64,000 nucleotides of DNA, from assembly GCA_945869735.1 (NCBI GenBank), contig CAMBPQ010000013.1, positions 155-64,154 of the forward strand. The letters run 5' to 3'. This stretch comes from Planctomicrobium piriforme (GTDB lineage: Bacteria > Planctomycetota > Planctomycetia > Pirellulales > UBA1268). The position numbers and the translations under genes are program-made. How positions within the stretch are numbered: the stretch's first letter is position 1; each line of letters opens with the position of its first letter. Below, piece after piece: positions 17,006 through 46,096 of the stretch. The notes beneath the pieces are model-generated. The model was not told the origin of the DNA. It saw nothing but the letters and a program-made list of their open reading frames with translations, and ran no database searches.

Positions 17006-21351
<4,346 letters not shown>

Positions 21352-21526: not shown

Positions 21527-21985
21527 TCAGTGTCCCGTCGAACGGTGGAGCGCGGGCCCCTGGGAACGACCTGCCGACGGGGAGTGCAGCACCCGCGGGC
21601 CATCGGTGGGATAGGAGCCCGTGCCGCCTTGGTAACGGCTGCCGTGCCACCACCTCAGGTTCGTGTGTTTTGGAATGACGAGGCCGGTGTAATCGGTTCC
21701 CCACACGCCTTCGTTGATTCTTCGTTCCTCGCTCGAGCGGCTGCGCTCGCGGGCGCCGCCGCCGACGTAGTAGCCCTCCTCGTGGGGTGATTCCGTCGGT
21801 TTCGCCAGCGGTGAAATCCGCTCGGGATTGCCGGCCCGACGGAACTGGTCTCCCTGGAAATGTTTTCGCTTGGTCGCCGGACGCCCCATCGGCGGGGTTA
21901 GGTCGTGGCCACAGGCCGAAGGGAGCAACGGCCCAGCCATGATCACCGCCAGCAGCATGATTCTCCAGCACCCTGGTGTGTGCAT
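21527..21985 (-). CDS. Small secreted hypothetical protein
   Basis: Hydrophobic N-terminus; aromatic/Gly motifs GYYVGGG, GVWGTDY, WWHGSRYQGGTGSYPTDG; start may be a few codons later. Confidence 0.6.
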   Translation of the reverse strand: MHTPGCWRIMLLAVIMAGPLLPSACGHDLTPPMGRPATKRKHFQGDQFRRAGNPERISPLAKPTESPHEEGYYVGGGARERSRSSEERRINEGVWGTDYTGLVIPKHTNLRWWHGSRYQGGTGSYPTDGPRVLHSPSAGRSQGPALHRSTGH

Positions 21986-22206
21986 CCGCTAGTCCCTCTC
22001 CAGAGCCCGTTTCTTGTCCAATCAGATCCTTTGCTGAGCCGCCGTCTGTCACAGAGTCGACGCAGTGTGCCCAGTTTGTGCAGACTTCTTCCGCTATTTC
22101 GTCCAATCAGAAAGGAACTCAAAGTCAACCCGGTCCGCAACGCCGATACCTTTGTCACAGCCCGATTTATGAGCGTTTCTTGACAGGGTGTCTTATCGTC
22201 CCGGGT

Positions 22207-24330
22207 GTGATTGACCGTCGCGCGCGATCAATTCCTCGGCCGCTACCGGCCGTGAGGGTCTGCGCGATCGTGGTCGGCGGGCTTTTCGCCGTGTTGTTCT
22301 TCCATCGCGTCGAGGCCGGGGAATACCCGTTGCCGCCGCCGGGCGAGCGGTCGGAGAGCACGCTTTCGAAGCGCGGGAATACCGGCGAGATTCCGAGCAT
22401 CTTCATCCCGCCGGAATGGCCGCGGCAGCTTCCACCCATCGACGGTTCTGTCGAGACGGGTGCGGATGGCTGGCAGTTCGAAATGAATCTCCTCGAGCAG
22501 GAGTCAGCGCTCTTCGACGCAGGTGCAGCCAATACCATCCGGGACGAACAACTCCGCATCTCCCAGATCCGTGGGCCGCAGGTCCTCGCCGAGCCGGCGG
22601 AAAACCCTTACGACATGGCCGGACAGAGCCCGGTCACGGATCCTCTCAACCGCTATCCCGTCTTTCCAACGCCGGGATTCGCCGGCGCATCGAGCGTGTT
22701 GCCGAGCGAGCAGCAGGAGTCGAGCCACTTCGTGCCCATGGAGGACCGTTGGCGCATCGGATCCCCCGCATGGGACCGCTATGGCCGTGGGCATCCTCGG
22801 CTCGACGACTATCCCTATGCACTGGGCAACGCCTTCAATCCCTACACGCAGAACTTCCTCAAGGAGGATTTTCCGCTCATCGGGCAGCACACGTTCTTCG
22901 ACATGAAGGGCATCAGCCGCACGATCACGAACTTCCGGCAGGTCCCCACGCCAAACACGCCGTTCGAGTCGACGCCAACTCCGGGGCAGGAGCCATTTTT
23001 TGGCAACCCCAACGGGTTCCTGTTGCTCCAGTACTACGCGCTGGCGTTCGAACTCAATCACGGCGACAAGACGTTCAAGCCCAACGACTGGCGGATCAAG
23101 ATCGCCCCGGTCTTCAACCAGAACTACCTCGAGGTTTACGAGTATGGCGTGACGTCACCCGATGTCGAAAAGGGCCGGCGACGCTATCGGGGGTTTGCCT
23201 CGCTCGAGGAGTGGTTCCTCGAGGTCAAACTCGCCGACCTCAGTCCGGACTACGATTTTATGTCGGTACGGGGGGGGTCACAGCCCTTTACGAGCGACTT
23301 TCGGGGCCTGATCTTCAGCGATTTGAACCGTGCCATCCGGCTCTTCGGCACGCAGTTCTCCAACCGTGATCAGTTCAATGTGATCATCTTCGACCAACGG
23401 GAGAAAGACACCAACAGCTTCCTCAACTCGTTTGACGACCGCGGTCAGAACATTCTCATTGCCAACTACTACCGGCAGGACTTCATCTGGCCGGGCCACA
23501 CGGTGCAGACCAGTTTTCACTACGACTACGACCAGGCGCAGATCAAGTACGACAAGAACGGATTCCTCGTGCGTCCTGACCCGGTTGGCCTCGCTGAGCC
23601 GCACGAGGTCAACGCCTGCTATTTCGGAGTTGCCAACGATGGCCACATCAACGAGCTCAATATCTCGAGCCACTTCTACTACGTGCTCGGGCACGACACG
23701 CTCAACCCGCAGGCGCTGCAGCCGGTGGACATCGGCGCGACTATGGCGGCCGTCGAGCTCTCCTATTCGCCCGACTGGATCCGCTTCCGAAGCTCATTCT
23801 TCTTCGCTTCCGGCGACAACGACATCAACGACAATAAGGCCGGTGGCTTCGACGGCATCATCGACAACCCACAGTTCGCAGGTGGCGAGTTCAGCTTCTG
23901 GGTGCGGCAGCAGATCAAGCTGCTGGGTACCAACCTCAAGAACCTGCTGAGCATCTATCCCGACCTCCGCGCCAGCAACAAGTTTCAGTCCCAGGCCAAC
24001 TTCGTGAATCCCGGCTTGCAGCTCTACAATGTCGGCGTGGACTTCGAACTGACCCAGCGAACAAGGCTGATCACCAACTGTAATTTTCTCTTCTTCGACA
24101 CGACGGACGTGCTCGAGTCGTTCGTGTTTCAGGACAACATCTCGCGTTCCATCGGCACCGACCTCAGCGTGGGCTTCGAATCCCGCCCGCTCCTCAACAA
24201 CAACTGGATTTTCCGGGCGGGCGTCTCGGGCCTGCTCGTCGGCGAGGGGTTTCAGCAGCTCTACGGCAACCTGGACAACAACGTGCAAAATCTGTTCGCG
24301 GCATTCACCGACCTCGAAATGGCGTTCTGA
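22207..24330 (+). CDS. Probable outer-membrane beta-barrel protein
   Basis: Signal-like segment ending VEA; Pro-rich N-terminal region; many alternating aromatic/hydrophobic strands; terminal Phe (TDLEMAF); start uncertain (22207-22270). Confidence 0.7.
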   Translation: MIDRRARSIPRPLPAVRVCAIVVGGLFAVLFFHRVEAGEYPLPPPGERSESTLSKRGNTGEIPSIFIPPEWPRQLPPIDGSVETGADGWQFEMNLLEQESALFDAGAANTIRDEQLRISQIRGPQVLAEPAENPYDMAGQSPVTDPLNRYPVFPTPGFAGASSVLPSEQQESSHFVPMEDRWRIGSPAWDRYGRGHPRLDDYPYALGNAFNPYTQNFLKEDFPLIGQHTFFDMKGISRTITNFRQVPTPNTPFESTPTPGQEPFFGNPNGFLLLQYYALAFELNHGDKTFKPNDWRIKIAPVFNQNYLEVYEYGVTSPDVEKGRRRYRGFASLEEWFLEVKLADLSPDYDFMSVRGGSQPFTSDFRGLIFSDLNRAIRLFGTQFSNRDQFNVIIFDQREKDTNSFLNSFDDRGQNILIANYYRQDFIWPGHTVQTSFHYDYDQAQIKYDKNGFLVRPDPVGLAEPHEVNACYFGVANDGHINELNISSHFYYVLGHDTLNPQALQPVDIGATMAAVELSYSPDWIRFRSSFFFASGDNDINDNKAGGFDGIIDNPQFAGGEFSFWVRQQIKLLGTNLKNLLSIYPDLRASNKFQSQANFVNPGLQLYNVGVDFELTQRTRLITNCNFLFFDTTDVLESFVFQDNISRSIGTDLSVGFESRPLLNNNWIFRAGVSGLLVGEGFQQLYGNLDNNVQNLFAAFTDLEMAF

Positions 24331-31092: not shown

Positions 31093-31231
31093 GCCGGCGG
31101 CACTCCAAGAACCTGCCCCGATCGATCCACCATCTGCCACAATAGATTCAATTATCATCGACCGCCAGCGTCCGGTTTCATGGATGCGTTCGGGCTGGTG
31201 CCTCTGAGAAAATGCCCCGCAGGGAGAAACT

Positions 31232-33979: not shown

Positions 33980-34010
33980 GTCTCGCACCACGGAGGCGTA
34001 CCGTAGGACC

Positions 34011-35774
34011 ATGATCGTTCAGGAACTGCACCACATTCAGCACCGGCACCGGCACCTGCCCGAGGCGGAACTCCGCAAGCTCGCCGAACGCACCGGCACG
34101 CCGCTCCACCGGCTGCAGGAGGTCGCGAGCTTCTTTCCTCACTTCCGCCGGTCGCCGGCGCCGGCGGTCGAGGTGCTCATCTGCCACGACATGGCCTGCC
34201 ACCAGCATGGCTGCGTGGGACTGAAGCGGGATCTTGAGCAGTCGCTCGCCGGCGAGCTGTCGGCGGGCAACGCGGCGGTGAAATATGCCTCCTGTCTGGG
34301 GCGGTGCGACCGTCCCGTGGCGACGCTGGTCAACGACCAACTCTATGCGGCCAGGTCGGCCGCCGACCTAGCGCAGATCGTGCGCACCACGCTCGCCGGC
34401 TCCCCTCCGCCAGCCGACACCGACAGCGGCTATCAGGTACATGCCAATCGTCCCTGGAGAATCGACCCCTACGCGGGTCCATCCACCTACGAGGCCGTCA
34501 GGGCCTTCGTGGCGTCTGGCGACGTGCAGGCCGTGATCGACATCCTGAAAATCTCCGACCTCCGCGGGATGGGCGGGGCGGGCGTGCCGGCCCATCAAAA
34601 GTGGAACGACGTCTGGAAGGCAAAGGGAGATGCGAAATACATCGTCTGTAACGCCGACGAGAGCGAGCCGGGCACGTTCAAAGACCGTGAGCTGCTGACG
34701 CAGCACCCGCACCTCGTGCTGGAGGGCGTGATCCTCGCGGGCCTGATGACGGGGGCGACGCGGGGCACGATCTACATCCGCCACGAGTATGCCGAACAGA
34801 TCGCAATCATGAACCGCGAGATCTCGCGGGCCGTCGCGGCTGGCGTCTGCGGGGTCAACGTGCTCGGCAGCGGGCGGACGTTTCCGGTTGATGTCTTTAC
34901 GAGCCCCGGCGGCTATATCTGCGGCGAGCAGAGCGCGCTGATCGAGGCGATGGAAGACCGCCGGGCCCAGCCGCGGAACAAGCCGCCCCAACTCGAGACC
35001 AACGGCCTCTACGACAAGCCGACGCTCGTCAGCAACGTGGAGACGTTCGCGTGGGCACCGGCGATCGTGATCAACGGCGGCGAATGGTATGCGGCCCAGG
35101 GAATCAACGGCTGCAAGGGAAGGCGACTGTTTTCGATTTCAGGCGACGTGCTTCGTCCGGGCGTCTATGAGGTGCCAAGCGGCATCACGCTGCGGGAGTT
35201 TCTCGTCGATCTGGCCGGCGGCGTGTCCGGCCCAGGCGGCCATGCTGGCACGCTCAAGGCGTTTGCCCCGTCGGGACCATCGGGCGGATTCATGCCGGCG
35301 AAGCTACCCGTCTCGTCCCTCCCGCGGGGCTGGGAAAAGCGGGCCCCAGCACCGCTTCAAGCGGCGGTGGCGGCCGCCGGCGGCACCCACCTCGACATCC
35401 TCGACCTGCAGCTCGACCTGCAGCGGTTTCGCGATCTTGGGCTGGCCATCGGCGCCGGCATGGTCGTCTATAACGACACCCGTGACATGGTCGCCGAGGC
35501 CGTCAACTGCTCCGAGTTCTTCCGGGACGAGTCGTGCGGGAAGTGCGTTCCCTGCCGGCTCGGATCGGAGAAGATCGTCGAGATCGGTCATGAGCTCGCC
35601 GGCCGGCGGTTCGATCCGCAGGCGTTGGCGGCACAGCAGCTGCTCGTGCACGAGCTCACCCGCGCGATGGAGATGACGTCGATCTGCGGACTGGGAATGG
35701 TTGCTGCCAAGCCGCTGCAGTCGGTGTTTGAGTTCTTTCCAGCCGACGTCGAAGCCCATCTGCAGAAGGTCTGA
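34011..35774 (+). CDS. NuoE-NuoF fusion (FMN/NAD(P)H-binding, 2Fe-2S plus 4Fe-4S) diaphorase subunit
   Basis: CHDMAC...CLGRCD (NuoE cluster); LRGMGGAG, CNADESEPGTFKDR, YICGEQSAL, SNVETF, CGKCVPCR...CGLG. Confidence 0.92.
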   Translation: MIVQELHHIQHRHRHLPEAELRKLAERTGTPLHRLQEVASFFPHFRRSPAPAVEVLICHDMACHQHGCVGLKRDLEQSLAGELSAGNAAVKYASCLGRCDRPVATLVNDQLYAARSAADLAQIVRTTLAGSPPPADTDSGYQVHANRPWRIDPYAGPSTYEAVRAFVASGDVQAVIDILKISDLRGMGGAGVPAHQKWNDVWKAKGDAKYIVCNADESEPGTFKDRELLTQHPHLVLEGVILAGLMTGATRGTIYIRHEYAEQIAIMNREISRAVAAGVCGVNVLGSGRTFPVDVFTSPGGYICGEQSALIEAMEDRRAQPRNKPPQLETNGLYDKPTLVSNVETFAWAPAIVINGGEWYAAQGINGCKGRRLFSISGDVLRPGVYEVPSGITLREFLVDLAGGVSGPGGHAGTLKAFAPSGPSGGFMPAKLPVSSLPRGWEKRAPAPLQAAVAAAGGTHLDILDLQLDLQRFRDLGLAIGAGMVVYNDTRDMVAEAVNCSEFFRDESCGKCVPCRLGSEKIVEIGHELAGRRFDPQALAAQQLLVHELTRAMEMTSICGLGMVAAKPLQSVFEFFPADVEAHLQKV

Positions 35775-35778
35775 AGCC

Positions 35779-38340
35779 ATGGCCGGGCACGATACCGAAA
35801 CTCGCCGTCCGGACATGCTCGACGACGGCCTCGTGCTGCCCGAGGAGGACGGCCTGTTCGCTCGCGACATCGACGGCCAGCTCGTGCGGATGGACAAGGT
35901 CACGGCGGCCGATTTCGAGAAACAGATCACGATCAAGATCGATGGTCGCGAGGTGACCGTTCCCAAGGCGGTGCCGCAGACCGATTCGCAGGGCAGGATT
36001 CTCCGCGATGCCGAAGGGCGGCCGATCCCGCGGGCGACCACGATCTACGACGCCGCCACCAAGGCCTACGCGGGCGATCCCGCGGGTAATCCCGTTCCGA
36101 TTCTCTGCCACCAGGAGCATCTCGACCCGGTCGGCGTCTGCCGTGTCTGCTGCGTGGAGATCGCGAAGGTAAAACGCGGCTCGATGCAGCGGGAGCGGAA
36201 GCTACTCCCCGCCTGCCACCACCGCGTCGAGGAGACGATGGAGGTGCAGACGATTCGCTCCCCCGACCTGGCGGCACGGAAGCGGGTCGATGCAAACGTG
36301 CGGACGCTCGTCAACCTGCTCGCCGCCGATCACCTGCCGGCCGATTGGAAGGCGGGCCTGCCTGCCAACGAACTCGGACGGCTTGTCGAGGAGCTTGATG
36401 AACTCGCCCTCGATGCGCGGGCGATTGAGGCGGCCACCGACCCGGCGATCGACCCGGCCGTGATCGAGGCGAAGTGGCCGCTGGCCGGTGGGCAGCTCTT
36501 CAGCCGGCGGGCGCTCGACCGTGGCCGTGACGACAGCTCCTCCCGGATCGCCGTGGATCACAACCAGTGCATCCTCTGCGACCGCTGCGTGCGGGCCTGC
36601 AACGAGGTCAAGGAAAACCACGTCATCGGGCGTTCGGGCAAGGGCTATGCCACGCACATCGGTTTTGATCTGGATGATCCGATGGGGTCTTCCAGCTGTG
36701 TCTCCTGCGGCGAGTGCATGATCTCCTGCCCGACGGGAGCGCTGGTGTTTCGTGAGTTGGTCGGGGCGGCCTCCCCTGGCGGAAGCGATCGCCCGGACAT
36801 CGAGGAACTGAAACGGCATCCGCTGTTTGCGGGTATTCCGGCGAAGTTTCTCGAATGGAACTCACAGAGCATCACCCGCCGTCGCTTTCGGGTGGGCGAG
36901 GTGATCTGCCACGAGGGTGAGTATGCGTCGACGGCGTTCGTCCTCGTCCGCGGCCGCGTGGGCGTGTCGATCGGGGCGGCTGGCGCCCGTGAGGCAACGG
37001 CCGCGGCCGGCGGCTTCAAGGCGTTTGTCCGTTCCGCTACCAGTTGGCTGCAGGGCACTGCCTCCGCGCGGCCGGGCCGCCGCCTCGCAAAGCAGAAGTC
37101 CGTGGCGATCGATAGCGGCCGTTCGCTCGCGCTGGTCGATGGCAAATGGGTCGGTGAACTGACGCCCGCCGACGTGCTCTTCGGAGAGATGTCGTGTCTC
37201 AACGCCTACCCGCGATCGGCGACGGTGGTCACGCTCGAGGAGACCGAGGTTCTCGAGATCCACCGCAACGTGCTCTACATGCTGCAGCGGAGCGAGTCGT
37301 CGCGGCAAGTCCTCGACCAGGCCTACCGCAGCCGCACGCTTGCCCAGGAGCTTTCCCAGCTCTCGATGTTTCGCGGGCTCTCGGAGGAAGACCGCCGTCA
37401 CTCCGCCGAATTCCTGCGAGACCGGGCGGAACTCGTGACGGTGGACAAGGGCCAGCCGATCTTCCGGCAGGGCGACGTCGCCACCGACTTCTACAAGGTT
37501 CGCTTCGGGTTTGTGAAAGTTTCGCAGCGGATGGGGGAGCATGAGCGGGTGCTCGACTATCTGGGCCCCGGCCGCACGTTTGGCGAGATCGGCCTGATCT
37601 CATCGATGGTCGACCTCGACACGGAACTGGCCAGTTCCGGCGGCACGCGCGCCCTGCGCGTGGCCACGTGCACGGCGCTCGACACCGTCGAACTCGTGCG
37701 TATCCGTGGTACTGATTTCCGTGAGATCGTCGAGCGATATCCGGCGGCTCGGGACGAACTGGTTGCAGAGGCCCGGCGGCTATTGGCACTCAACGTCGAC
37801 CGCAGTCGGCAGAACGACGGCGGGCTCGAGGAGTTTATTGGCAACGGCCTCTACAGCGCCCAGAAACTGCTCGTGCTTGATCTCGAGAGTTGTACGCGGT
37901 GTGACGAGTGCACGAAGGCCTGCTCCGACACGCACGAGGGGGTGACTCGGCTGATCCGCGAGGGGCTGCGATTCGAGAACTTTCTCGTGGCTAGTTCGTG
38001 CCGGTCCTGCCTCGATCCCTACTGCTTGGTCGGCTGCCCCGTTGACGCGATCCATCGCAAGCCGCGGGAGAACCATCCCGGTGCCGTCGAGATCGTGATC
38101 GAGGACCACTGCATCGGCTGTGGGCTCTGTTCGAGCAACTGCCCCTACGGCAACATCTCCATGCACAAGGACGAGGAGGAGGACCGCCGTGTAGCCACCA
38201 CCTGCGACCTCTGTCGCGACCTTGTCGGCCCTGACGACGATCCCAGCTGCGTCTACGCCTGTCCGCACAACGCGGCCTTCCGGATGAGCGGGCAGGAGCT
38301 CCTCCAGATCGTCTCCAGCCGCCACGCAAGGGTGCCCTGA
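35779..38340 (+). CDS. Multi-Fe-S protein: NuoG/FdhF-type N-terminus, two cNMP-binding domains, DmsB-like four-cluster ferredoxin
   Basis: LCH...CRVC...PAC (2Fe-2S); CILCDRCVRAC, CVSCGECMISCP; FGEMSCLNAYPRSATV and FGEIGLI...RVATC; CTRCDECTKAC, CRSCLDPYCLVGCP, CIGCGLCSSNCP, CDLC...SCVYACP. Confidence 0.9.
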   Translation: MAGHDTETRRPDMLDDGLVLPEEDGLFARDIDGQLVRMDKVTAADFEKQITIKIDGREVTVPKAVPQTDSQGRILRDAEGRPIPRATTIYDAATKAYAGDPAGNPVPILCHQEHLDPVGVCRVCCVEIAKVKRGSMQRERKLLPACHHRVEETMEVQTIRSPDLAARKRVDANVRTLVNLLAADHLPADWKAGLPANELGRLVEELDELALDARAIEAATDPAIDPAVIEAKWPLAGGQLFSRRALDRGRDDSSSRIAVDHNQCILCDRCVRACNEVKENHVIGRSGKGYATHIGFDLDDPMGSSSCVSCGECMISCPTGALVFRELVGAASPGGSDRPDIEELKRHPLFAGIPAKFLEWNSQSITRRRFRVGEVICHEGEYASTAFVLVRGRVGVSIGAAGAREATAAAGGFKAFVRSATSWLQGTASARPGRRLAKQKSVAIDSGRSLALVDGKWVGELTPADVLFGEMSCLNAYPRSATVVTLEETEVLEIHRNVLYMLQRSESSRQVLDQAYRSRTLAQELSQLSMFRGLSEEDRRHSAEFLRDRAELVTVDKGQPIFRQGDVATDFYKVRFGFVKVSQRMGEHERVLDYLGPGRTFGEIGLISSMVDLDTELASSGGTRALRVATCTALDTVELVRIRGTDFREIVERYPAARDELVAEARRLLALNVDRSRQNDGGLEEFIGNGLYSAQKLLVLDLESCTRCDECTKACSDTHEGVTRLIREGLRFENFLVASSCRSCLDPYCLVGCPVDAIHRKPRENHPGAVEIVIEDHCIGCGLCSSNCPYGNISMHKDEEEDRRVATTCDLCRDLVGPDDDPSCVYACPHNAAFRMSGQELLQIVSSRHARVP

Positions 38341-38403
38341 GAAGGACAGGCTCAATCCTGTTCGGCACGGGGGTTGCCGGGCAGGTGAATCGGCGTCTTG
38401 CGA

Positions 38404-38542
38404 GGGAGGGGTTGCCCGCGTCCTTTCGCTGGACGTTCGCGGCGGGCCTCCAGCCCGCCGCTCACTGCGGTGGAAGCTGCGCTTCGCAATCCTTGCTTCG
38501 CTTGCTTCCACAGCCCGCTCGAGGACGCGGGCCACCCCTCCC
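38404..38542. repeat. Palindromic (cruciform) intergenic element between convergent genes
   Basis: Ends GGGAGGGGTTGCCCGCGTCCT / AGGACGCGGGCCACCCCTCCC (20 of 21 complementary); internal hairpins GCGGCGGGC-ctcca-GCCCGCCGC and GTGGAAGC...GCTTCCAC. Confidence 0.65.
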
Positions 38543-38551
38543 GCCGGCTGT

Positions 38552-39982
38552 TTACCGGTCGCGACTCTCGATCGCCCTGACGATTGCCTCAAGTTCGAGG
38601 CGCACGGCGGCGGGATCGTAGTCGTGCGGGCTGTCGAACCGCACTTTTCTGCCGCCGACCTCGCCTTCGGGAAACTCGAGCATTGTCCGCACGGCAGCGA
38701 GCCGTTGCCGAATCTCCGTCACGTCCTCATGGGTCGCCAGTCGGTCAGTAAGGGCGTTGAGAGCCTTGGCCCCGATCACTACTTCGTCCCAGTTCGCGAC
38801 GTTAAGACTCTCGAGTGCAAGGCGGGCGAGTTGGTTGTCGGGAATCGTCTTCAGCCGGTCGCTCGCGAGGTATTGCGCGGTTTTGACTGCCTGACGGCAG
38901 GCCTCGATCGCTTCCGGCCGTGGCGGTTGCCACCACGTGGCCTCGACATCCGTGCGGAAGGCGGCCAGCGTGCGTGCGGCATCCTCGGGTAAGAGTTCTT
39001 CCGTCAGCGCCCACCGCATCGGCTCCAGCCGCAGGCGACCGAGCGGCCGGGTGGCGGTCGCACTGCGATCAACCGGTATGTGATCGATCTGGGCGTGATC
39101 GATCTGGGCGATGGCCTGTCGGTGGCAGCCGTAGCAATCGAAGGCGGTGAACTCCGGCCAGACCCCGGCCTGGTCGCCAGCGCCCGTTTTCATCGCGCGA
39201 GCGGCCTGAAACTCAATCTTCGCCAGATACGCGTCGAGCGCCCCGAGCCGACCGAGAACCACTTCATCGAGCACGTCGAGACCACCGTCGCCAGCAGCAA
39301 ATCGATCCCGCCAGTGCGGCGGCTCCCCCTGTTTGAAACTTCTGAGGTTGAAGACCAGGCGGGGATGGCCGGCGGCGATCATGTCATGGCTCACCTCGTA
39401 GAGGGCGCCGTCGGCCGCGGGGGGAGCGCCGATGTGACACTGGCCGCACTGGGTGGCGCAGATGTACGGGTCGGCGAGATCGACCATACCGAGGGAGTTG
39501 CCCCGTGTCTGCCAGCCGGGCAGCGTGTGGGCGACAAGCCAGTCACCAGCGGGTCCGTGGCATGACTCGCAGCTCACGCCCTCGGAGGCGCGGGCCCCCT
39601 GCACGGTGGTATGGCAGCCCAGGCAGGACTTGTTTTCATGGGCAGGCGATAGCGAATGGGATGGATCCCGTGCGCTGAGCAGGGTGATGATCTGCTGTGC
39701 GAGCGGTTCCCGGAGCACCTCGTAGGCCCGCGTGTGCCGATCGTGCGTGGCCCACACGGTGTAGGCGCTCTCCCAGGGCAGGTGGCCCTCTATGGGGGCG
39801 GCATGGCAACCAGCCGTCGCGCAGCCACCGGCCCCAAGCACCGCCCGGGGCGCCGCGACGCTTCGTGCGCTCCCTGCGTCGCCCACCGGTTCACTCGCAC
39901 GGCGGCCTGACACGCCGTACGCCAGCAGCATCGCGAGCCCGGCAATGATCACGAAAAAAAGAATGCCACGCGGTCTGTCCAT
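38552..39982 (-). CDS. Multiheme cytochrome c (c554-like, 5 heme motifs), membrane-anchored
   Basis: CATAGCH, CLGCH, CESCH, CGQCH, CYGCH; HDMIAAGHP; N-terminal transmembrane helix. Confidence 0.88.
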   Translation of the reverse strand: MDRPRGILFFVIIAGLAMLLAYGVSGRRASEPVGDAGSARSVAAPRAVLGAGGCATAGCHAAPIEGHLPWESAYTVWATHDRHTRAYEVLREPLAQQIITLLSARDPSHSLSPAHENKSCLGCHTTVQGARASEGVSCESCHGPAGDWLVAHTLPGWQTRGNSLGMVDLADPYICATQCGQCHIGAPPAADGALYEVSHDMIAAGHPRLVFNLRSFKQGEPPHWRDRFAAGDGGLDVLDEVVLGRLGALDAYLAKIEFQAARAMKTGAGDQAGVWPEFTAFDCYGCHRQAIAQIDHAQIDHIPVDRSATATRPLGRLRLEPMRWALTEELLPEDAARTLAAFRTDVEATWWQPPRPEAIEACRQAVKTAQYLASDRLKTIPDNQLARLALESLNVANWDEVVIGAKALNALTDRLATHEDVTEIRQRLAAVRTMLEFPEGEVGGRKVRFDSPHDYDPAAVRLELEAIVRAIESRDR

Positions 39983-39996
39983 CTGCCGTGTATCCT

Positions 39997-41646
39997 TCAC
40001 GGCGGGGCGTGGGGGCCAAGCCCGTGGTAGCCATGGCATTCGACGCAGTCGAAACGCACCCCGCCCACGGTCGTCTTGGTGGCGGCATCATAGCGTGACG
40101 GTGCATGGCACTGCGTGCATGACTCCCGGCCCGCGATCATCACGATCGAGTTGTCGAGCGGTGAACCATACGAGCCAGTGTGCGTGCCATCCGCGGCCGG
40201 ATCATCGGGGTAGGCCGCAGCATGGCAGAGCCGACAGTCGTAGGAACGGTGGGGATGGTGATCGAACCGCGCCTTGGAGAGCCAGACATCCGGCACCCTG
40301 CTCGGCAGCACCCGAAACCAGTTGGTGGTCACCCCCGCCTCAGTCTCGGCTTTCTCGAGCAGGCTGCCGTCGTTCGACACGGTCGCAGTGTCGAGGGTGT
40401 GGCACTTGTCGCAGGTGCCCTGCACGAAGGTTCGGGCCGCCCGCACCCGATCGACGATAGCCATCCGGAGCGTCTCATCGGGCACGGCAGCATTCCGGAC
40501 GGAGGGGAGCGGATCCGTCGTCTTGATCCTGGCATCGAGCAGACGCCGGTTGTCTTCGAGCGCCTCTTCGAGGAATGTCGATTCCAGAAATCGCCGCAGT
40601 CCCTCGGCATCGAGTCCGTGGGGGACGAAGTGCTCACTCTGCAGGCTTGGCGGGCGGCGCTCAAGGGCCGTGTCGGCGGCCACGTCGCTGCCTGCGGGTA
40701 CGGCCATGCCGTCGTAGGGCAGCACGTGGCAGGCGGCGCAGTGCCGTTCAAACTCCACCGGCAACGCATAGGCCCCGGGCGATGATGCCGTGAGCAGGCT
40801 ACTCACGGTCCGCAGCTCTCCCGGCGCCGAAGAGGAGGCGAACTCATGGCAGGAGTTGCAGGAGAGCTGGATCGCGTCGGCGTCGAGCCCGCCCGTGGGG
40901 AGATACCGGCTGCGATCCTTCTCCGGAAGCAGGCCATACGTCCACACCTGTGCGGCCCGCCGTGTGTACGGCTTGAGCGTGCGGTCCTCGGGATGGTCGC
41001 TGTCGCTGGCGAACGTCAACCCGGCACGCATGTGCCGGCCGTGCGAAAACTTCACCGTGCCCGGATCGGAGGCGAGAGACGCAAATGGCGGGTGGTGCTC
41101 GTTGTCGAATCGCGTGATCGGTGTCGTCACACCCGAGGGGACGACCGCCGAGGTGGCAATCCGATGAGCCGAGATGTTGGCATGGCAGGCCGTGCAGGAA
41201 TGGTCGGCCACCCGCGTGAGGTCGTTCGATCGGCCCTGGTGATCGGCATGGCAGGAGGCGCACGATCCAACCTCGGCGGCGAGTTGCAATGGATGGTGGG
41301 AGGCCGCGCGGTGGCAGGCCTCACATTTGGCTTCCATCTCCCGGCGGGTTTCCGCCGTGGTCAGCCAGGTGTTGTCCTTGATGGGCGAGAGCGGCACGTG
41401 GCAGGCCGCGCAGTCGTTTTCCCACTTTGCATGCACGGTGGCCACCGGCCCCGGCGAGTGGTGCCGTGGCACGTCGATCGCTCCCCAGGCACACCAGCCG
41501 ATTCCGAAGACGACCGCTACCCCGATCAGCCAGCGGCGTCCGCGTTGCAGGGAGCTGAGTTGATGGAAGTAGGAGCGGTCGATCCGTGAGACCTGCTCGC
41601 GGGACGTCGCCTTACGATTCAGCGGTTGATCATTCGGGCCGGGCAT
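39997..41646 (-). CDS. Decaheme cytochrome c (c3-like), membrane-anchored
   Basis: 10 CXXCH: CAACH, CEACH, CASCH, CTACH, CNSCH, CAACH, CDKCH, CRLCH, CTQCH, CVECH; transmembrane helix near the N-terminus. Confidence 0.9.
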   Translation of the reverse strand: MPGPNDQPLNRKATSREQVSRIDRSYFHQLSSLQRGRRWLIGVAVVFGIGWCAWGAIDVPRHHSPGPVATVHAKWENDCAACHVPLSPIKDNTWLTTAETRREMEAKCEACHRAASHHPLQLAAEVGSCASCHADHQGRSNDLTRVADHSCTACHANISAHRIATSAVVPSGVTTPITRFDNEHHPPFASLASDPGTVKFSHGRHMRAGLTFASDSDHPEDRTLKPYTRRAAQVWTYGLLPEKDRSRYLPTGGLDADAIQLSCNSCHEFASSSAPGELRTVSSLLTASSPGAYALPVEFERHCAACHVLPYDGMAVPAGSDVAADTALERRPPSLQSEHFVPHGLDAEGLRRFLESTFLEEALEDNRRLLDARIKTTDPLPSVRNAAVPDETLRMAIVDRVRAARTFVQGTCDKCHTLDTATVSNDGSLLEKAETEAGVTTNWFRVLPSRVPDVWLSKARFDHHPHRSYDCRLCHAAAYPDDPAADGTHTGSYGSPLDNSIVMIAGRESCTQCHAPSRYDAATKTTVGGVRFDCVECHGYHGLGPHAPP

Positions 41647-41650
41647 GACA

Positions 41651-42661
41651 CTACCAGTACCAAAGAGCGACCGGCACGTGGATCGCAAGGAGAATTCCCA
41701 AGGCGACCGACACCGGCACGTGCACGAGTAGCCAGCCATGCAGCCAGCCGTGCAGCCGCGACTGCAAGTCGAACTGGCGTCGATTCTCGCACAACTGCTC
41801 GAGCTGGTTGATCAGATCGCTGGCGGCGGCGGGAGCATCGGCCCGCAGCGTTGCGAAAAACTGCCACGATTCCAGCCTCCCCGCCAGCGGCGAACCGCCG
41901 CCGGCACCGGCCAGGAGATAGGGCCGAATCTGCTCGTTGAAACGCCTGGCGATCTCCCGGGTTCCCGGGATGACGCTGTAGATCGGAACGGTCTCGAGCA
42001 CCTTTCCCTGGATCCCGGTCATCGATCGGAAGCCGGTGATGACGGCATATTCGGCCTCTTCGTCATGACGATCTCCACGGTTATGGTCGTCAGACTCGAA
42101 TCCTCCGGCGGTGGCACCAGATTCGTGGTCGGGCTGGTCGGCAACGGGTTCGCAGAGCGCATTGACGAGTTTTTCCGCATCGGTGGCCTGCTGTGCTGCG
42201 ACGTGCTCGATCTGATCGTAGATCGTCTCGGCAGGCACATGTTTCAGCAGTAATTTCGGCAGGAACTGCTGCAGAACGAGTCCCCAGACGCCGCTTCCGA
42301 TCACGATCACGAACGTCCACATCAGGGCCACATTCAGTAGTCCGCCAATAAAAAAGAGCCTCGCATGCATCACGACCAGTGGCACTGACAAGAGCCCGAG
42401 CCAGACGTGCGCCCGCAGCCAGGTCTGGGCCGAGCCGATCCGCCAGGAGCGGACGTATTTTCTCGGCCAGAGCAACAGTTCGAAGACGATAATCAGGCCC
42501 CCAGCGATCCCGTAGAGAAACCCCGAGTGGCTGCTGCCACCGGGGATCGTCCCGACGGTAGACCACTCGACGGCGTAGGCCGCCACGGCCAGCACCGAGA
42601 CCGCCACGATCGCGATCACCCACTTCCGATCGTGCGGCCAGGTTTTTCCACCGATGATCAA
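41651..42661 (-). CDS. Integral membrane protein with paired His helices (cytochrome b/ferric-reductase-like)
   Basis: About five transmembrane helices; WLRAHVWLGLLSVPLVVMH and WLLVHVPVSVALGILLAIH; TTG start after GGAG; 4 nt from the decaheme gene. Confidence 0.72.
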   Translation of the reverse strand: MIIGGKTWPHDRKWVIAIVAVSVLAVAAYAVEWSTVGTIPGGSSHSGFLYGIAGGLIIVFELLLWPRKYVRSWRIGSAQTWLRAHVWLGLLSVPLVVMHARLFFIGGLLNVALMWTFVIVIGSGVWGLVLQQFLPKLLLKHVPAETIYDQIEHVAAQQATDAEKLVNALCEPVADQPDHESGATAGGFESDDHNRGDRHDEEAEYAVITGFRSMTGIQGKVLETVPIYSVIPGTREIARRFNEQIRPYLLAGAGGGSPLAGRLESWQFFATLRADAPAAASDLINQLEQLCENRRQFDLQSRLHGWLHGWLLVHVPVSVALGILLAIHVPVALWYW

Positions 42662-42921
42662 GAGGGGCGCTCCGGGCAGAAGCAGAGGCAGAAGACAGCC
42701 TTGGCCGCTCGTTGGAGACGGTCCTCGGAACTTCCATTTCGCTGTAATACTAGGTGTTTTCGCCTCTCTGGAAAACGGCATTCGCCCCGACAACCGAGCT
42801 TTTGGTGCGGAAAAGGCTGAATATCCCGATCAGGGGGTGAATCGCACGATTTCTGCATCGGCGGGCGGTCTCCCGTCGAGTCTTCATACAGGGGACGTTG
42901 CGATCCTGGGAACTGCCTGAC

Positions 42922-44436
42922 GTGCGACCGTTTGGAGCCGCTGTGGGGGCGTGCGCTGCCGCGCTCTTCGCGTGGATCGGGGCTCCGTGCGCCGCTGCGG
43001 AACCACTGCCGGCCCCGTGCGTGGTCCGTTCGCCCGACATCGCCCTTCCCGGGGTGTCCGGCATTCCCAGCATGCCCGGCGACGCAACCGTCTACGCGGG
43101 AATGCGGCCTCAGGCCTCGGCAACGGGCCTCAGTGTCGCCTCGTGCGGCACCGTGTCGTGCCATGGAGGGCCGAAGGACGGCAACCGCGAGGTGCAGTCG
43201 TTCGCCTTCACGATCTGGATGAACGACGATCCGCATGCGCGGGCCTACGAGGTGCTGCATGAGCCACGTTCGCAGCGAATGGCGCGGTCGCTTGGCCTGG
43301 GAGAGGCCCACCGCGCCCAGCAATGTCTGGCGTGTCATTCCATGCAGAGCGAGAGCCGTCAGCCCCTCCCGCCGGAGGTGCTTGCCGACGGGGTTGGCTG
43401 TGGTTCCTGTCACGGTGATTCCTCAGCGTGGCAGCAGATTCATTATCTCCCCGAATGGAAGCGGCTTTCGACGACCCAGCGCGAGTCGCTTGGGTATCGC
43501 GATCTGAGCACTGTGCCGACCCGCGTTCAAAACTGTATCCCCTGCCATGTGGGTGATGGATCGCAGGAGGTGAACCACGACTTGATCGCGGCCGGCCACC
43601 CCCGGCTCTTCTTCGAGTTCGCCGCCTACCAGCAGCTCTGGCCCCGACACTGGACTCCCGCCGGAAAGGCCGAGTCGCAGGTCGACTTCGCAGAGCGCTC
43701 GTGGGCGGTTGGACAGGCTGCGACCCTCGAAGCGGTGGCCGCGCTCCTGGCAGTCCGCGTCGAGCGGGCGTCTTCCGACATCGCGGCCGCGCGGCCCCAC
43801 CGCTGGCCGGAACTGTCCGAGTTCGACTGTTATGCCTGCCATCAGGCCCTGGGACCGCGGTCGTTCACGGCGGGGCATCCTGCCCGCTTTCAAAACCCCT
43901 TCCCGGGGCAGCCGTCGTGGCAGCCGTGGTATGTCTCTGCCGGTCGGCTCCTCGAGGCCGTGGCTTCGCATTCGGAGCCAGGCAGGCCAGGGGTTGGAAC
44001 GACCACCGTCGATATCCGAAAAGTATTCGAGCCTGAATGGTTCATCGCCGACAAGGAGCGTCTCGACCGCGTGCTCCTGGAGGCGCGGGGGCTCTCGCGG
44101 GCGGCGGGGGCTTCCACCCGCGAACTCGCGGCCCGGGAGCGGATCGTCCTCGATGCCTCCCACCAGCGGCTCGATGCCCTGCTTGCCGACGCGCCGCCGG
44201 AGTGGCGGTTTTGGGATGCGGCGGTGCAGACGCTGCTCGTGATAGAGGCGGCAGGCGGTGGGCGTGCGACGGGCGGCCGGCAAGCGGCGGCCACGGGGCA
44301 AACGCGTCGGGCGATCGACGAGCTTCGCGAAAGTCTGCAGTTTCCGCCTGGCGCCGACAGCCCTCGGCGGTTCGACCCAGTACGTTTCAACCTCGATCGG
44401 GCCGCAGTACCATTGACGTCTGACGTGCAGCCGTGA
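42922..44436 (+). CDS. Multiheme cytochrome c (c554-like, 5 heme motifs)
   Basis: CGTVSCH, CLACH, CGSCH, CIPCH, CYACH; HDLIAAGHP; signal peptide; start approximate. Confidence 0.88.
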   Translation: MRPFGAAVGACAAALFAWIGAPCAAAEPLPAPCVVRSPDIALPGVSGIPSMPGDATVYAGMRPQASATGLSVASCGTVSCHGGPKDGNREVQSFAFTIWMNDDPHARAYEVLHEPRSQRMARSLGLGEAHRAQQCLACHSMQSESRQPLPPEVLADGVGCGSCHGDSSAWQQIHYLPEWKRLSTTQRESLGYRDLSTVPTRVQNCIPCHVGDGSQEVNHDLIAAGHPRLFFEFAAYQQLWPRHWTPAGKAESQVDFAERSWAVGQAATLEAVAALLAVRVERASSDIAAARPHRWPELSEFDCYACHQALGPRSFTAGHPARFQNPFPGQPSWQPWYVSAGRLLEAVASHSEPGRPGVGTTTVDIRKVFEPEWFIADKERLDRVLLEARGLSRAAGASTRELAARERIVLDASHQRLDALLADAPPEWRFWDAAVQTLLVIEAAGGGRATGGRQAAATGQTRRAIDELRESLQFPPGADSPRRFDPVRFNLDRAAVPLTSDVQP

Positions 44437-45983
44437 GCGTTGCGTGTGACCATCGGCGAGTTGGCAACATGAGCAGCACGGGCAGGTCCATTCCTGCGAC
44501 CATTGCCGCGGTCGTCGTCCTCCTGGGGGGCGTGTCCCGAGGTTTCAGCGCGGCCCCGGACGCACAGCCACTGCGGTCCCCGGCGTTTCGCTTGAAGGGC
44601 ACCGATCGCTGCGTGAAGTGCCACCGCAGCGAACAGGGTGACTGGTGCGACGTCGCGACGACGTCAGCCTGGCGGCACGACGCTCATTCACGGGCCCATC
44701 TCGCCCTATCACCGGACAACGAGCGCACGCGAGCGATGGAGCAGGCGCTCGGCATCAAGGCGGCGGAGACGGCCAGTTGCATCGCCTGCCACACGCATTC
44801 GATTGACGAGCCGCCGATCGAAGAAGAGACCAATGTGCTCCACGCCGGGATCAGCTGCGAGACCTGCCACGGCGCGGGCTCCGGGTATCTGGAGCCACAC
44901 CTGGAGAAGTCGTGGCGGTTTCTGTCGTCGGCCGAGAAGCAGGCATTTGGGATGCACGATCTCCGCAACCCGATCGCAAAGGCGCAAAACTGCCTGTCGT
45001 GCCATCTGGGAGAGGTCGCGACCGGCCGCATCATTACGCACCAGATGTATGCCGCCGGTCATCCGCCGCTGCCGGCCTTCGAGATGGAGGCCTTCAGCGC
45101 GGGCATGGGCCCACACTGGAAACGCGTCTGGGAGAAGTCGCCAAAAATCCAGCAGCTGGCGGCCGAAGCGCACTATGAGACCGAGGGGGCCAGCGAACTC
45201 GAGCGGTCGTTGGTCGGGGCGCTGGTGGCGCTTCGTGAGACGGCCCGTCTGGTAAACGACTACGCGAACGTGACGGAAAATGATGCCAAGGATCATCCTT
45301 GGCCGGAACTGGCCCTCTATGACTGCCAGGCCTGCCACCACGAACTGGCCGTGCCGAGTTGGCGGCAGGAGGTAGGGTATGGCCGGCTGGTGCCGGGACG
45401 GCCGTCGCTCGTCCGCTGGCCGCGCCGACTGGCGGCGGTCGCCTTCGCAGAGGCAGGCCTGCCGATAGACGTCGATGCCCTGCTCGAGCCGTTCGTCGCT
45501 GTGCTTAACCGCAGGCCGTTCGGTACTGCCGATGGACTGCGGCAGGCGGCCGACGCCGGAGCAGAGTCGTTCGCGCAGATCGACCGCGCGATCGAGGTGC
45601 TCACCCGCTGGCAGCGCGACGACACGCTGGCTGCACGGGAGCAGGCGGCGACCACACGCATTGCCGCCGCCGGCCGGGCAGTTGGCGACTTCGATTCAGC
45701 GAGGATACTCGCCTGGGCATTGACGCACGGGCTTGCCAACGCCGACGCCTGGCCGCAGGACATGCGGTCAGAGAAGATTGCCGAACTCTCGCGGCTGCTC
45801 TTGCTCGGATTTCCCACGCCGGCGTATCCGGTTCCACCGTCTCCTGAGAAACCCTTCTGGCAGACGTCGCTCACCGCCGCACCAGACGCCGACATCGCTC
45901 GGGTGCGGAAGGCGTTTGAACTTCCGCCTGCCGAGAAGCCGGCTCCCGGTATCGAGGTCATTCCGCCGCCCGTGGCACGCTGA
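44433..45983 (+). CDS. Multiheme cytochrome c (c554-like, 5 heme motifs)
   Basis: CVKCH, CIACH, CETCH, CLSCH, CQACH; HQMYAAGHP; GTGA overlap with the upstream gene (alternative ATG at 44469). Confidence 0.88.
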   Translation: MSVACDHRRVGNMSSTGRSIPATIAAVVVLLGGVSRGFSAAPDAQPLRSPAFRLKGTDRCVKCHRSEQGDWCDVATTSAWRHDAHSRAHLALSPDNERTRAMEQALGIKAAETASCIACHTHSIDEPPIEEETNVLHAGISCETCHGAGSGYLEPHLEKSWRFLSSAEKQAFGMHDLRNPIAKAQNCLSCHLGEVATGRIITHQMYAAGHPPLPAFEMEAFSAGMGPHWKRVWEKSPKIQQLAAEAHYETEGASELERSLVGALVALRETARLVNDYANVTENDAKDHPWPELALYDCQACHHELAVPSWRQEVGYGRLVPGRPSLVRWPRRLAAVAFAEAGLPIDVDALLEPFVAVLNRRPFGTADGLRQAADAGAESFAQIDRAIEVLTRWQRDDTLAAREQAATTRIAAAGRAVGDFDSARILAWALTHGLANADAWPQDMRSEKIAELSRLLLLGFPTPAYPVPPSPEKPFWQTSLTAAPDADIARVRKAFELPPAEKPAPGIEVIPPPVAR

Positions 45984-46096
45984 GCGCGAGGGCGGTCGAC
46001 GTTGGTGAGATGCAGCGTGAGATGCGCTGCTCGATCCGCGGCAAAAACGTCACCTTTCCCAACGACACGAAAGGCCAAGCAGGTGGTCGCGGGCCG

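Follow-up and report, generated by a model that had tools for sequence, protein, structure and literature searches.

A plus-strand gene in a 64,000-nucleotide stretch of the Planctomicrobium piriforme genome (assembly GCA_945869735.1, contig CAMBPQ010000013.1, positions 155 to 64,154 of the forward strand; hereafter the window) encodes an 853-amino-acid protein in which a HoxU-like iron-sulfur (Fe-S) module, two cyclic nucleotide-binding (CNB) domains and a four-cluster ferredoxin follow one another in a single chain. The domain layout of this CNB/Fe-S protein, its cofactor ligands and the cassette residues of its CNB domains are conserved among its homologues, and the gene cluster around it is conserved across phyla. 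We lean towards the view that the protein is the cytoplasmic Fe-S subunit of an NADH-fed transmembrane electron conduit of the PCC4/Ptd type, and that its CNB tandem serves, at least through CNB1, to bind cAMP or cGMP and to adjust electron flow or assembly. A first-pass annotation of the same DNA had described the gene as an Fe-S wire with two CAP-family domains, and had suggested that ligand binding could change the distance between the two Fe-S blocks and act as an electron-transfer switch; our analysis confirms the observation and partly supports the interpretation.

The longest open frame of the gene (35701-38340) starts with TTG, and the ATG at position 35779 gives a protein of 853 residues, as long as P0002, the representative of its cluster in the protein collection, with which it is 100% identical. 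A Pfam search placed Fer2_4 at residues 102-158 (29 bits, cut-off 22.8), Fer4_Nqo3/Fer4_9 at 256-322 (Fer4_Nqo3 29.4 bits, cut-off 27), cNMP_binding (PF00027, E 1.3e-29) in three stretches, the best at 553-654, because an insertion splits CNB1, and Fer4_7/Fer4_11 at 735-831 (Fer4_11, PF13247, 35.9 bits, cut-off 26.2). All 28 cluster cysteines are kept in 116/116 aligned full-length homologues. They form one 2Fe-2S set (C110/121/124/146), two N-terminal 4Fe-4S sets (C264/267/270/274 and C307/310/313/317) and four C-terminal groups (C705/708/711/715, C741/744/749/753, C778/781/784/788 and C809/812/824/828). The NuoG/FdhF/HoxU-type N-terminus with one 2Fe-2S and two 4Fe-4S motifs, the two CAP-family domains and the four DmsB/NrfC-type motifs that the first-pass annotation had read from the letters are thus borne out by the profiles and by the conservation of the ligands. 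Its wording that the CNB domains replace a catalytic domain is fair as a description of the layout; as an event in evolution, such a replacement would be hypothetical. A reading as a transcription factor of the CRP/FNR kind was rejected because the Pfam result shows no DNA-binding domain, and the protein is without a membrane segment.

Sequence matches in the PDB include FdsA, HydA and NuoG-like chains for residues 250-328, and 8c0z_C and 1kqf_B for the C-terminal four-cluster domain. Among NCBIfam models, the N-terminal part is nearest to the group A6 [FeFe] hydrogenase (FeFe_hydrog_A6, E 4e-33), HoxU (1.7e-26) and NuoG (3.5e-16), and the C-terminal part to DmsB (E 4.8e-19), all with scores under the curated cut-offs (HoxU 93 bits vs 333, NuoG 59.1 vs 470, TIGR02951 DmsB 68.9 vs 214.1). 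Judged by its sequence, the protein is related to HoxU/NuoG and to DmsB and is an equivalog of neither. In HoxU and NuoG, a further cluster is bound at a His-Cys3 site with the motif H-x3-C-x2-C-x5-C. The window protein has no cysteine between C146 and C264, and H-x3-C-x2-C was found in 0/97 long-form homologues, while H185, the histidine of LAADH, is present in 82/97. Since the motif is missing throughout and the histidine mostly persists, the loss of this N5-type site, already suspected in the first-pass annotation, holds for the whole family, with H185 as a vestige of the His-ligated cluster.

The whole protein was modeled with AlphaFold2 from a 97-sequence alignment, with a mean pLDDT of 87.2 and a pTM of 0.86. 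Confidence is low only over residues 1-17 and over the insertion in CNB1 at about 400-445, and the segment of the lost His-Cys3 site is modeled as helices at 164-185, 198-220 and 226-232. In this model, the predictor commits to a single compact arrangement of all the domains. A Foldseek search found no structural relative of the whole chain, the matches covering the CNB tandem or the HoxU-like N-terminal module (N-module) alone.

Conservation of the CNB domains was assessed over 94 representatives of 50%-identity clusters that cover the core. These comprise 59 forms with the N-module, 26 short forms consisting of the two CNB domains and the four-cluster ferredoxin (residues about 340-845 of the window protein) and nine forms with other N-terminal extensions. 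In known domains such as those of PKA and CAP, the G, E, R, S/T and A of the binding cassette contact the cyclic phosphate. CNB1 of the window protein reads LFGEMSCLNAYPRSATV, an intact cassette, as the first-pass annotation had stated for its FGE...PRSAT, and the stretch FGEMSCLNAYPRSAT carries the G-E...R-[ST]-A of cNMP_binding. The Gly of CNB1 is found in 94/94 representatives, the Glu in 93/94 and the Arg in 86/94; the residue after the Arg is S/T in 71/94 (A in 11 more), followed by A in 80/94 and T in 86/94, and the full signature G-E...R-[STA]-A occurs in 68/94. Because this cassette is conserved across phyla, we predict that CNB1 probably binds a cyclic nucleotide.

CNB2 of the window protein also has the G, E, R and A of the cassette, reading TFGEIGLISSM and then RVATC, and the insertion that had been noticed ahead of RVAT is real: 23 residues lead from the Glu to the Arg, compared with the canonical 8-9. 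Its Gly is kept in 93/94 representatives, its Glu in 81/94 and its Arg in 75/94, with S/T after the Arg in 58/94, A in 68/94 and T/S in 87/94. The stretch from Glu to Arg is canonical (10 residues or fewer) in 36/94 and at least 18 residues long in 53/94, namely in 41/59 N-module forms, 12/26 short forms and 0/9 of the others. Without the insertion, CNB2 reads as a canonical cassette, e.g. FFGEIGLL..P-RTATC. We speculate that CNB2 may be a second ligand site in the forms with a canonical cassette and a docking surface in the N-module forms, in which the insertion is concentrated. Cassettes degenerate in most homologues, which the first-pass annotation had named as a finding that would speak against it, are not seen for CNB1, where the key G, E and R stand at 86-94/94 and the full signature at 68/94; CNB2, with a full signature in 44/94, is a borderline case. 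Three cysteines that belong to no cluster are also kept within the CNB domains: C377 in 75/94 (window 36907-36909), C473, in the cassette helix of CNB1, in 80/94 (window 37195-37197) and C631, just past the CNB2 cassette, in 63/94 (window 37669-37671).

The family is large. A word-indexed protein search, with 8000 candidates scored, returned 4067 proteins at E <=0.001, the best 120 of which are nearly all 800-870 residues long and share one set of Pfam domains; among the names they bear are 'cyclic nucleotide-binding domain-containing protein' and 'CRP-like cAMP-binding protein/Fe-S-cluster-containing dehydrogenase component'. An exhaustive search of the 50%-identity representatives gave 10200 matches at E <=0.001 and 737 at E <=1e-30. 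Within the phylum, 46/201 sampled genomes match at 1e-30, many of them over the short-form region alone. A scan of one genome per species confirmed at least 579 related loci among the 600 pattern matches listed. By record title, the best 80 loci belong mostly to Planctomycetota (including Tautonia sociabilis), and the rest to Acidobacteriota (Bryobacterales, Terriglobia and Acidoferrales), one Rokuibacteriota and one Verrucomicrobiia. Cultured hosts of the cluster named in the records are Tautonia sociabilis (L086), Roseiconus nitratireducens and Novipirellula caenicola. As hundreds of homologues share it, the layout of the window protein is beyond chance.

Some members depart from this layout or occur under unexpected names. 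P0141 (1483 residues) carries NuoE, NuoF, the HoxU-like module (Fer2_4, Fer4), cNMP_binding and the C-terminal four-cluster ferredoxin in one chain, and by fusing them it ties NuoE-NuoF to the CNB/Fe-S protein. In P0209 and P0234, one terminus (N or C) carries an FHA domain, of the kind that binds phospho-threonine. Among the nine variants with other N-terminal extensions, no flavoprotein domain was found in the six scanned with Pfam at 1e-6 (P0202, P0203, P0209, P0210, P0219, P0224 and P0235 were submitted, P0216 and P0221 left out). The cluster is also carried by metagenome-assembled genomes titled 'Candidatus Kuenenia stuttgartiensis' (L045, L050, L064, L083, L100 and L105), species labels that may be unreliable; the clusters of L045, L050 and L064 are 69-70% identical.

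The gene immediately upstream, which ends 4 bases ahead of the ATG, encodes a fused NuoE-NuoF with the Pfam domains thioredoxin-like 2Fe-2S, Complex1_51K, SLBB and NADH_4Fe-4S. The NuoE cysteines 58/63/95/99, the N3 cysteines 509/512/515/559 and the GMGGAG and GGYICGE motifs are intact in this protein, which carries a NuoE-type 2Fe-2S cluster site, the FMN/NADH site and an N3-type 4Fe-4S site; its match to the NCBIfam model nuoF_fam (E 1.4e-104) lies below the cut-off. A second NuoF is encoded on another contig of the genome (C1), so the fused protein of the window is an extra, dedicated module. Flavin-based electron bifurcation of the HydABC/Bfu type, which needs extra clusters, was set aside, as the NuoE 2Fe-2S and N3 cysteine sets are the only ones in this NuoE-NuoF and extra ferredoxin domains are absent.

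Downstream lie genes for a membrane protein (orf380) and for multihaem cytochromes c, two of which diverge from the minus-strand genes for orf380 and the other two cytochromes (Table 1). This association was followed in the best 80 related loci and in the subset of 44 loci of at least 19 kb. NuoE-NuoF is found in 40/44 long loci (68/80 overall), the N-module in 40/44 (73/80), an orf380 homologue in 41/44 (54/80), the decahaem gene in 41/44 (57/80) and a tetra- or pentahaem gene in 40/44 (61/80). The N-module and the core share one unbroken frame in 67/73 loci that have both. In a planctomycete locus (L027), the orf380 homologue, the decahaem, pentahaem and NuoE-NuoF genes, the CNB/Fe-S gene and a further cytochrome gene form a single row on the same strand. 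In the short-form loci, NuoE-NuoF and the N-module are absent, and the orf380 homologue and cytochromes still adjoin the CNB/Fe-S gene; the orf380 homologue is its neighbour in L031-L035 and lies within 4 kb of it in the window. Because its context combines a NuoE-NuoF partner, a dihaem-type membrane protein and multihaem cytochromes, the CNB/Fe-S protein is very likely a cytoplasmic Fe-S subunit, with NuoE-NuoF as its working partner and a functional link to the membrane protein and the cytochromes. Neither this context nor the earlier naming of the CNB/four-cluster core as PtdE in a preprint had been recognised in the first-pass annotation.

Table 1. Features of the CNB/Fe-S gene and of its cluster, in window positions
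Feature	Positions	Strand	Basis
CNB/Fe-S gene, 853 aa (HoxU-like Fe-S module, two CNB domains, four-cluster ferredoxin; long-form PtdE-like)	35779..38340	+	ORF, Pfam, NCBIfam, homologues
2Fe-2S beta-grasp domain, residues 49-160, C110/C121/C124/C146	35923..36258	+	Pfam Fer2_4; Cys 116/116
Helical segment, residues 161-250, in the place of the His-Cys3 [4Fe-4S] site of HoxU/NuoG; H185 present, three Cys absent	36259..36528	+	motif count, model
Two-cluster [4Fe-4S] ferredoxin domain, residues 251-330	36529..36768	+	Fer4_Nqo3/Fer4_9; PDB sequence matches
CNB1, residues about 340-520, poorly predicted insertion at about 400-445	36796..37338	+	Pfam, alignment, model
CNB1 cassette, residues 468-484, FGEMSCLNAYPRSATVV	37180-37230	+	alignment
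CNB2, residues about 521-680	37339..37818	+	Pfam, alignment
CNB2 cassette, residues 601-631, 15-residue insertion, RVAT	37579-37671	+	alignment
DmsB/NrfC-type four-[4Fe-4S] domain, residues 690-853	37846..38340	+	Fer4_11; 16 Cys 116/116; PDB matches
Fused NuoE-NuoF gene, 587 aa	34011..35774	+	Pfam, Cys sets, motifs
Multihaem cytochrome c, 4 CXXCH + 1 CX4CH, N-terminal anchor	38552..40039	-	motif count
Decahaem cytochrome c, 10 CXXCH, N-terminal hydrophobic segment (PtdG-like)	39997..41739	-	motif count
orf380, membrane protein (PCC4 inner-membrane protein / PtdF-like), five helices	41651..42658, longest ORF to 42793	-	motifs, model
Multihaem cytochrome c, 4 CXXCH + 1 CX4CH	42898..44436	+	motif count
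Pentahaem cytochrome c, 5 CXXCH	44433..45983	+	motif count
784-aa protein, candidate outer-membrane porin	21976..24330	+	tblastn co-location; ends ...LEMAF

In the membrane protein orf380, helices 3 and 5 each bear a W-x3-H-x13-H motif, and helix 4 bears SGxxG. W80, H84, H98, G123, G126, W309, H313 and H327 are invariant in 46/46 homologues, and S122 is kept in at least 90%. Its AlphaFold2 model (pLDDT 86.2) shows five long hydrophobic helices and a partly disordered soluble insert of about 150 residues. The inner-membrane protein of PCC4 has been described as a five-helix protein whose fourth helix carries SGXXG; it has two WX3HX13H motifs and was proposed to bind two b-haems (PMC5566968). 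Every one of these motifs is present in orf380, and from its sequence we regard orf380 as a putative dihaem b protein. A Pfam search at E <=10 returned two rows at chance level and did not match PF01794 (ferric reductase transmembrane domain), and NCBIfam gave no match. Foldseek found no PDB structure at E <=0.001 (best E 3.6, cytochrome b561 at E 6-9), and an alignment to 48,161 chains with VIA-align yielded generic helical hairpins only, with Z up to 9.2. Complex prediction for the CNB-Fd4 core with orf380 gave an ipSAE of 0.59 (runs 0.55, 0.60 and 0.59), with 0.00 as the highest score among three controls. The value of 0.59 lies above a mark passed by 58/80 solved complexes and 2/110 mismatched pairs, in a range (<=0.60) where only 7/80 solved complexes pass together with both of the passing mismatches. 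Agreement between the runs extends to at least 72% of the contacts, and the partner pLDDT is at least 71.

The 784-residue protein, which lies about 10 kb from NuoE-NuoF in the window, is co-located in 21 related loci by tblastn, including short-form and acidobacterial ones. It has no Pfam or NCBIfam match, and a feature-based likeness of 0.95 to a cluster of Alginate_exp porins is a lead only. Between it and NuoE-NuoF stand genes for a GH63-like glycoside hydrolase (31232-33979, plus strand; 10/80 loci) and for a 703-residue protein with an HbpS-like haem-degrading domain (29215-31326, minus strand; 16/80 loci); both occur in the closest relatives only, which suggests that they were inserted into the cluster in this lineage. 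Locus L045 shares these two neighbours with the lineage of the window. A 756-residue Ala/Leu-rich repeat protein (HxGPLxLxGL-like; 24335-26605, plus strand), which has no Pfam domain, was seen in three close relatives alone. Farther away, a catalase-peroxidase-like protein (PF00141; 17006-19468, minus strand) and a protein with AMP-binding and carrier domains beside a capsule-synthesis gene (50604-53381, plus strand) look ordinary.

In one freshwater metatranscriptome run, 12 short contigs match positions 33900-46000 with at least 95% identity. They fall on six genes, namely those for NuoE-NuoF, the CNB/Fe-S protein, the decahaem cytochrome, orf380 and two further cytochromes, and one spans the junction of NuoE-NuoF and the CNB/Fe-S gene (35502-35868). 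These contigs give a weak hint that the cluster is expressed, as they do not show strand, level or a single transcript and the library may hold DNA. The other RNA runs (X2, X4 and X6) had no contig on the cluster.

From this inventory we infer an order of carriers, an outward flow, ligand binding and, possibly, gating. NADH would be oxidised at the FMN of the fused NuoE-NuoF, and its electrons would enter the HoxU-like module of the CNB/Fe-S protein, passing the 2Fe-2S and then the two 4Fe-4S clusters, before moving on to the C-terminal chain of four 4Fe-4S clusters and to the two b-haems of orf380. On the periplasmic side, they would be taken up by the membrane-anchored deca-, penta- and tetrahaem cytochromes c and perhaps be carried further through an outer-membrane porin. 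From NADH, this outward flow would be the thermodynamically easy direction. The CNB tandem stands between the Fe-S blocks and is present in all forms; CNB1 at least would bind cAMP or cGMP, tuning electron flow or assembly. A more specific version, in which the ligand would displace the HoxU-like block with respect to either the four-cluster ferredoxin or orf380 and so open or close the wire from NADH to the periplasm or the cell exterior, is plausible because the CNB1 cassette is strongly conserved; we offer it tentatively, as a doubtful proposal.

The genome has three matches to the class III cyclase family PF00211 above the cut-off, two of them strong, on contigs C33, C70 and C25; all lie outside the window, and no cyclase is found within the gene cluster. 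Only three CNB-domain proteins are encoded in the genome. One is a G6PD_N and G6PD_C protein with a C-terminal cNMP_binding domain (E 4e-19), located 14 kb upstream of the CNB/Fe-S gene (19480-21351, plus strand). Two of the three are thus NAD(P)H-linked redox enzymes in this one window, the CNB/Fe-S protein and the G6PD-CNB fusion, and this hints at a control of redox balance by cyclic nucleotides in the organism.

Several points weigh against an NADH-fed conduit with a ligand-binding tandem. CNB2 is the weaker of the two domains, with its full signature in 44/94 representatives, and in the window protein it has V after the Arg (3/94, S/T being usual) as well as the 15-residue cassette insertion. 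The CNB/Fe-S gene is convergent with the orf380 and cytochrome genes in this window, with no co-transcription. Motifs are what speaks for haem binding by orf380, with neither a profile nor a convincing structural relative beside them, and its predicted complex with the core is a weak pass that adds a small increment. Moreover, the papers that named the cluster call its function, in their available text, unknown or hypothetical (PMC5566968; 10.1101/2023.11.21.568154), and He et al. suggested that electrons run the other way, into the cell from extracellular Fe(II) (PMC5566968). The state of CNB2, with insertions of at least 18 residues in most N-module forms, would suit a conduit of the same kind in which the tandem is a structural spacer, a docking module or a binder of another small molecule, so that transfer from NADH to the cytochromes is constitutive and free of cAMP or cGMP control. 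The variable and poorly predicted CNB1 insertion at 400-445 fits such a role as well, the Foldseek matches include trypanosome PKA-R homologues whose PDB titles describe them as cAMP-independent and nucleoside-bound, and the conserved C377, C473 and C631 may point to another function. However, the phosphate-contact residues of CNB1 are kept in 71-94 of the 94 representatives, from clusters below 50% identity and at least four phyla, which is hard to explain without a phosphate-ribose ligand, and CNB2 has a canonical cassette where the insertion is missing. We consider constitutive transfer unlikely, if still to be reckoned with.

The direction of flow and the physical link to the membrane can also be questioned. 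An inward conduit would pass electrons from an extracellular or periplasmic donor such as Fe(II) or Mn(II) through the cytochromes and the membrane protein to NAD+ at NuoE-NuoF or to the quinone pool. NuoEF-type modules are reversible in principle, as established for Hox and complex I. Inward flow is also what He et al. model for PCC4 in iron oxidisers (PMC5566968). Reduction of NAD+ by donors at the level of Fe(II) would nevertheless be uphill, and a proton- or sodium-coupled subunit was not seen in the cluster; a separate NuoF exists in the same genome, and the hosts are recorded as Planctomycetota and Acidobacteriota, which are not known iron oxidisers, making this direction improbable. A soluble NADH:ferredoxin-type oxidoreductase, or one with another acceptor, whose proximity to the cytochromes would reflect co-regulation and no physical conduit, would agree with the lack of a membrane segment, with the convergent orientation in the window and with the weak complex prediction. 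Such an enzyme would hardly account for the orf380 homologue and decahaem gene in 41/44 long loci across phyla, which are also retained beside the short forms without NuoE-NuoF, and four-cluster proteins of the DmsB type are usually docked to a partner that is catalytic or lies in the membrane, as in Dms, Fdn and Nrf. We regard it as highly improbable, and the outward, NADH-fed conduit remains our preferred reading.

In the cases known to us, respiratory or extracellular electron transfer is controlled via transcription or substrate availability. In the present case, the Fe-S subunit of a putative conduit, encoded in hundreds of genomes of soil, freshwater and marine bacteria, contains a CNB tandem whose cassette is conserved. 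If the ligand did gate the flow, the regulation of electron transport would gain a new principle and the protein would be a natural wire switched by a small molecule; second messengers would exert post-translational, ligand-gated control over an electron route that is common in Planctomycetota and Acidobacteriota. In the absence of gating, too, the cluster may lead electrons from NADH to multihaem cytochromes without the use of quinones, and this bears on the disposal of reducing power in these two phyla. The finding is a variant of a gene cluster that is in print, and it makes direct control of an electron wire by a second messenger testable.

Parts of this system resemble well-characterized proteins. 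The two consecutive CNB domains and the canonical CNB1 cassette recall the regulatory subunits of PKA and PKG: residues 443-613 align to PKA RI-alpha and RI-beta chains by sequence (E 8.5e-10 to about 5e-8), and Foldseek matches the CNB tandem to PKA-R and PKG tandem structures at E about 1e-13. In contrast to these, the window protein has no kinase partner, inhibitor sequence or dimerisation/docking domain, its CNB domains sit between Fe-S modules, and CNB1 has an insertion of about 45 residues and CNB2 one in the cassette. The NuoE/NuoF-type NADH-FMN module, the 2Fe-2S beta-grasp domain and the two-[4Fe-4S] ferredoxin are shared with the HoxEFU diaphorase, the NuoEFG N-module of complex I and the N-termini of FdsA and HydA (Foldseek: 7t2r_A, rmsd 3.9 over 279 columns; FdsA 7vw6_A). 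The window module differs from HoxEFU and NuoEFG by the absence of the His-Cys3 cluster site (97/97) and by running on into CNB domains and a four-cluster ferredoxin, and the conduit is without the hydrogenase, molybdopterin or Nuo membrane partner of these systems. The two H-x13-H pairs of orf380 on two transmembrane helices resemble the ferric reductase domain of NOX, FRE and MsrQ, as He et al. note (PMC5566968), whereas its lack of a PF01794 match even at E <=10, its five helices, its soluble insert of about 150 residues and the absence of a structural match set it apart. We found no report in the literature of a CNB domain combined with HoxU or NuoG, of cyclic-nucleotide gating in an Fe-S electron carrier or of a functional study of PCC4 or Ptd.

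The closest counterparts of the whole cluster, PCC4 and ptdABCDEFG, have been described by genomics alone in the available text of both accounts (PMC5566968; 10.1101/2023.11.21.568154). PCC4 combines a porin and a conserved inner-membrane protein with three multihaem cytochromes of the periplasm, which bear 4, 5 and 10 haems. Its subgroup II, to which Planctomycetes belong, has in addition an Fe-S (pfam13247) gene, located upstream of the gene for the membrane protein (He et al. 2017, Front Microbiol 8:1584, PMC5566968). The window has cytochromes with 10, 5 and 4 haem sites, the motif-matching orf380 and a protein that joins Fer4_11 to CNB domains; by comparison, the terms cyclic nucleotide, cNMP and NuoF each occur 0 times in the main text of that paper. 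The ptdABCDEFG operon, a name we found in one preprint only, occurs in Planctomycetes among other groups, and its function 'remains completely unknown' (10.1101/2023.11.21.568154). According to the text available, PtdE stands there beside the ferric-reductase-like membrane protein PtdF, the decahaem PtdG and tetra- and pentahaem cytochromes, and the CNB/Fe-S core of the window protein corresponds to it. The preprint counts two 4Fe-4S clusters in PtdE, whereas the C-terminal domain of the window protein alone has four cysteine groups. Neither the PCC4 nor the ptd account, in its available text, mentions a form that is fed by NuoE-NuoF and has the HoxU-like module fused to it. Taken together, these comparisons identify the window protein as a PtdE-type protein in a variant form, in which NuoE-NuoF takes the place of the flavoprotein donor, the FAD/NAD(P) oxidoreductase PtdC of ptd, and a HoxU-like Fe-S module of 336 residues is fused to the N-terminus.

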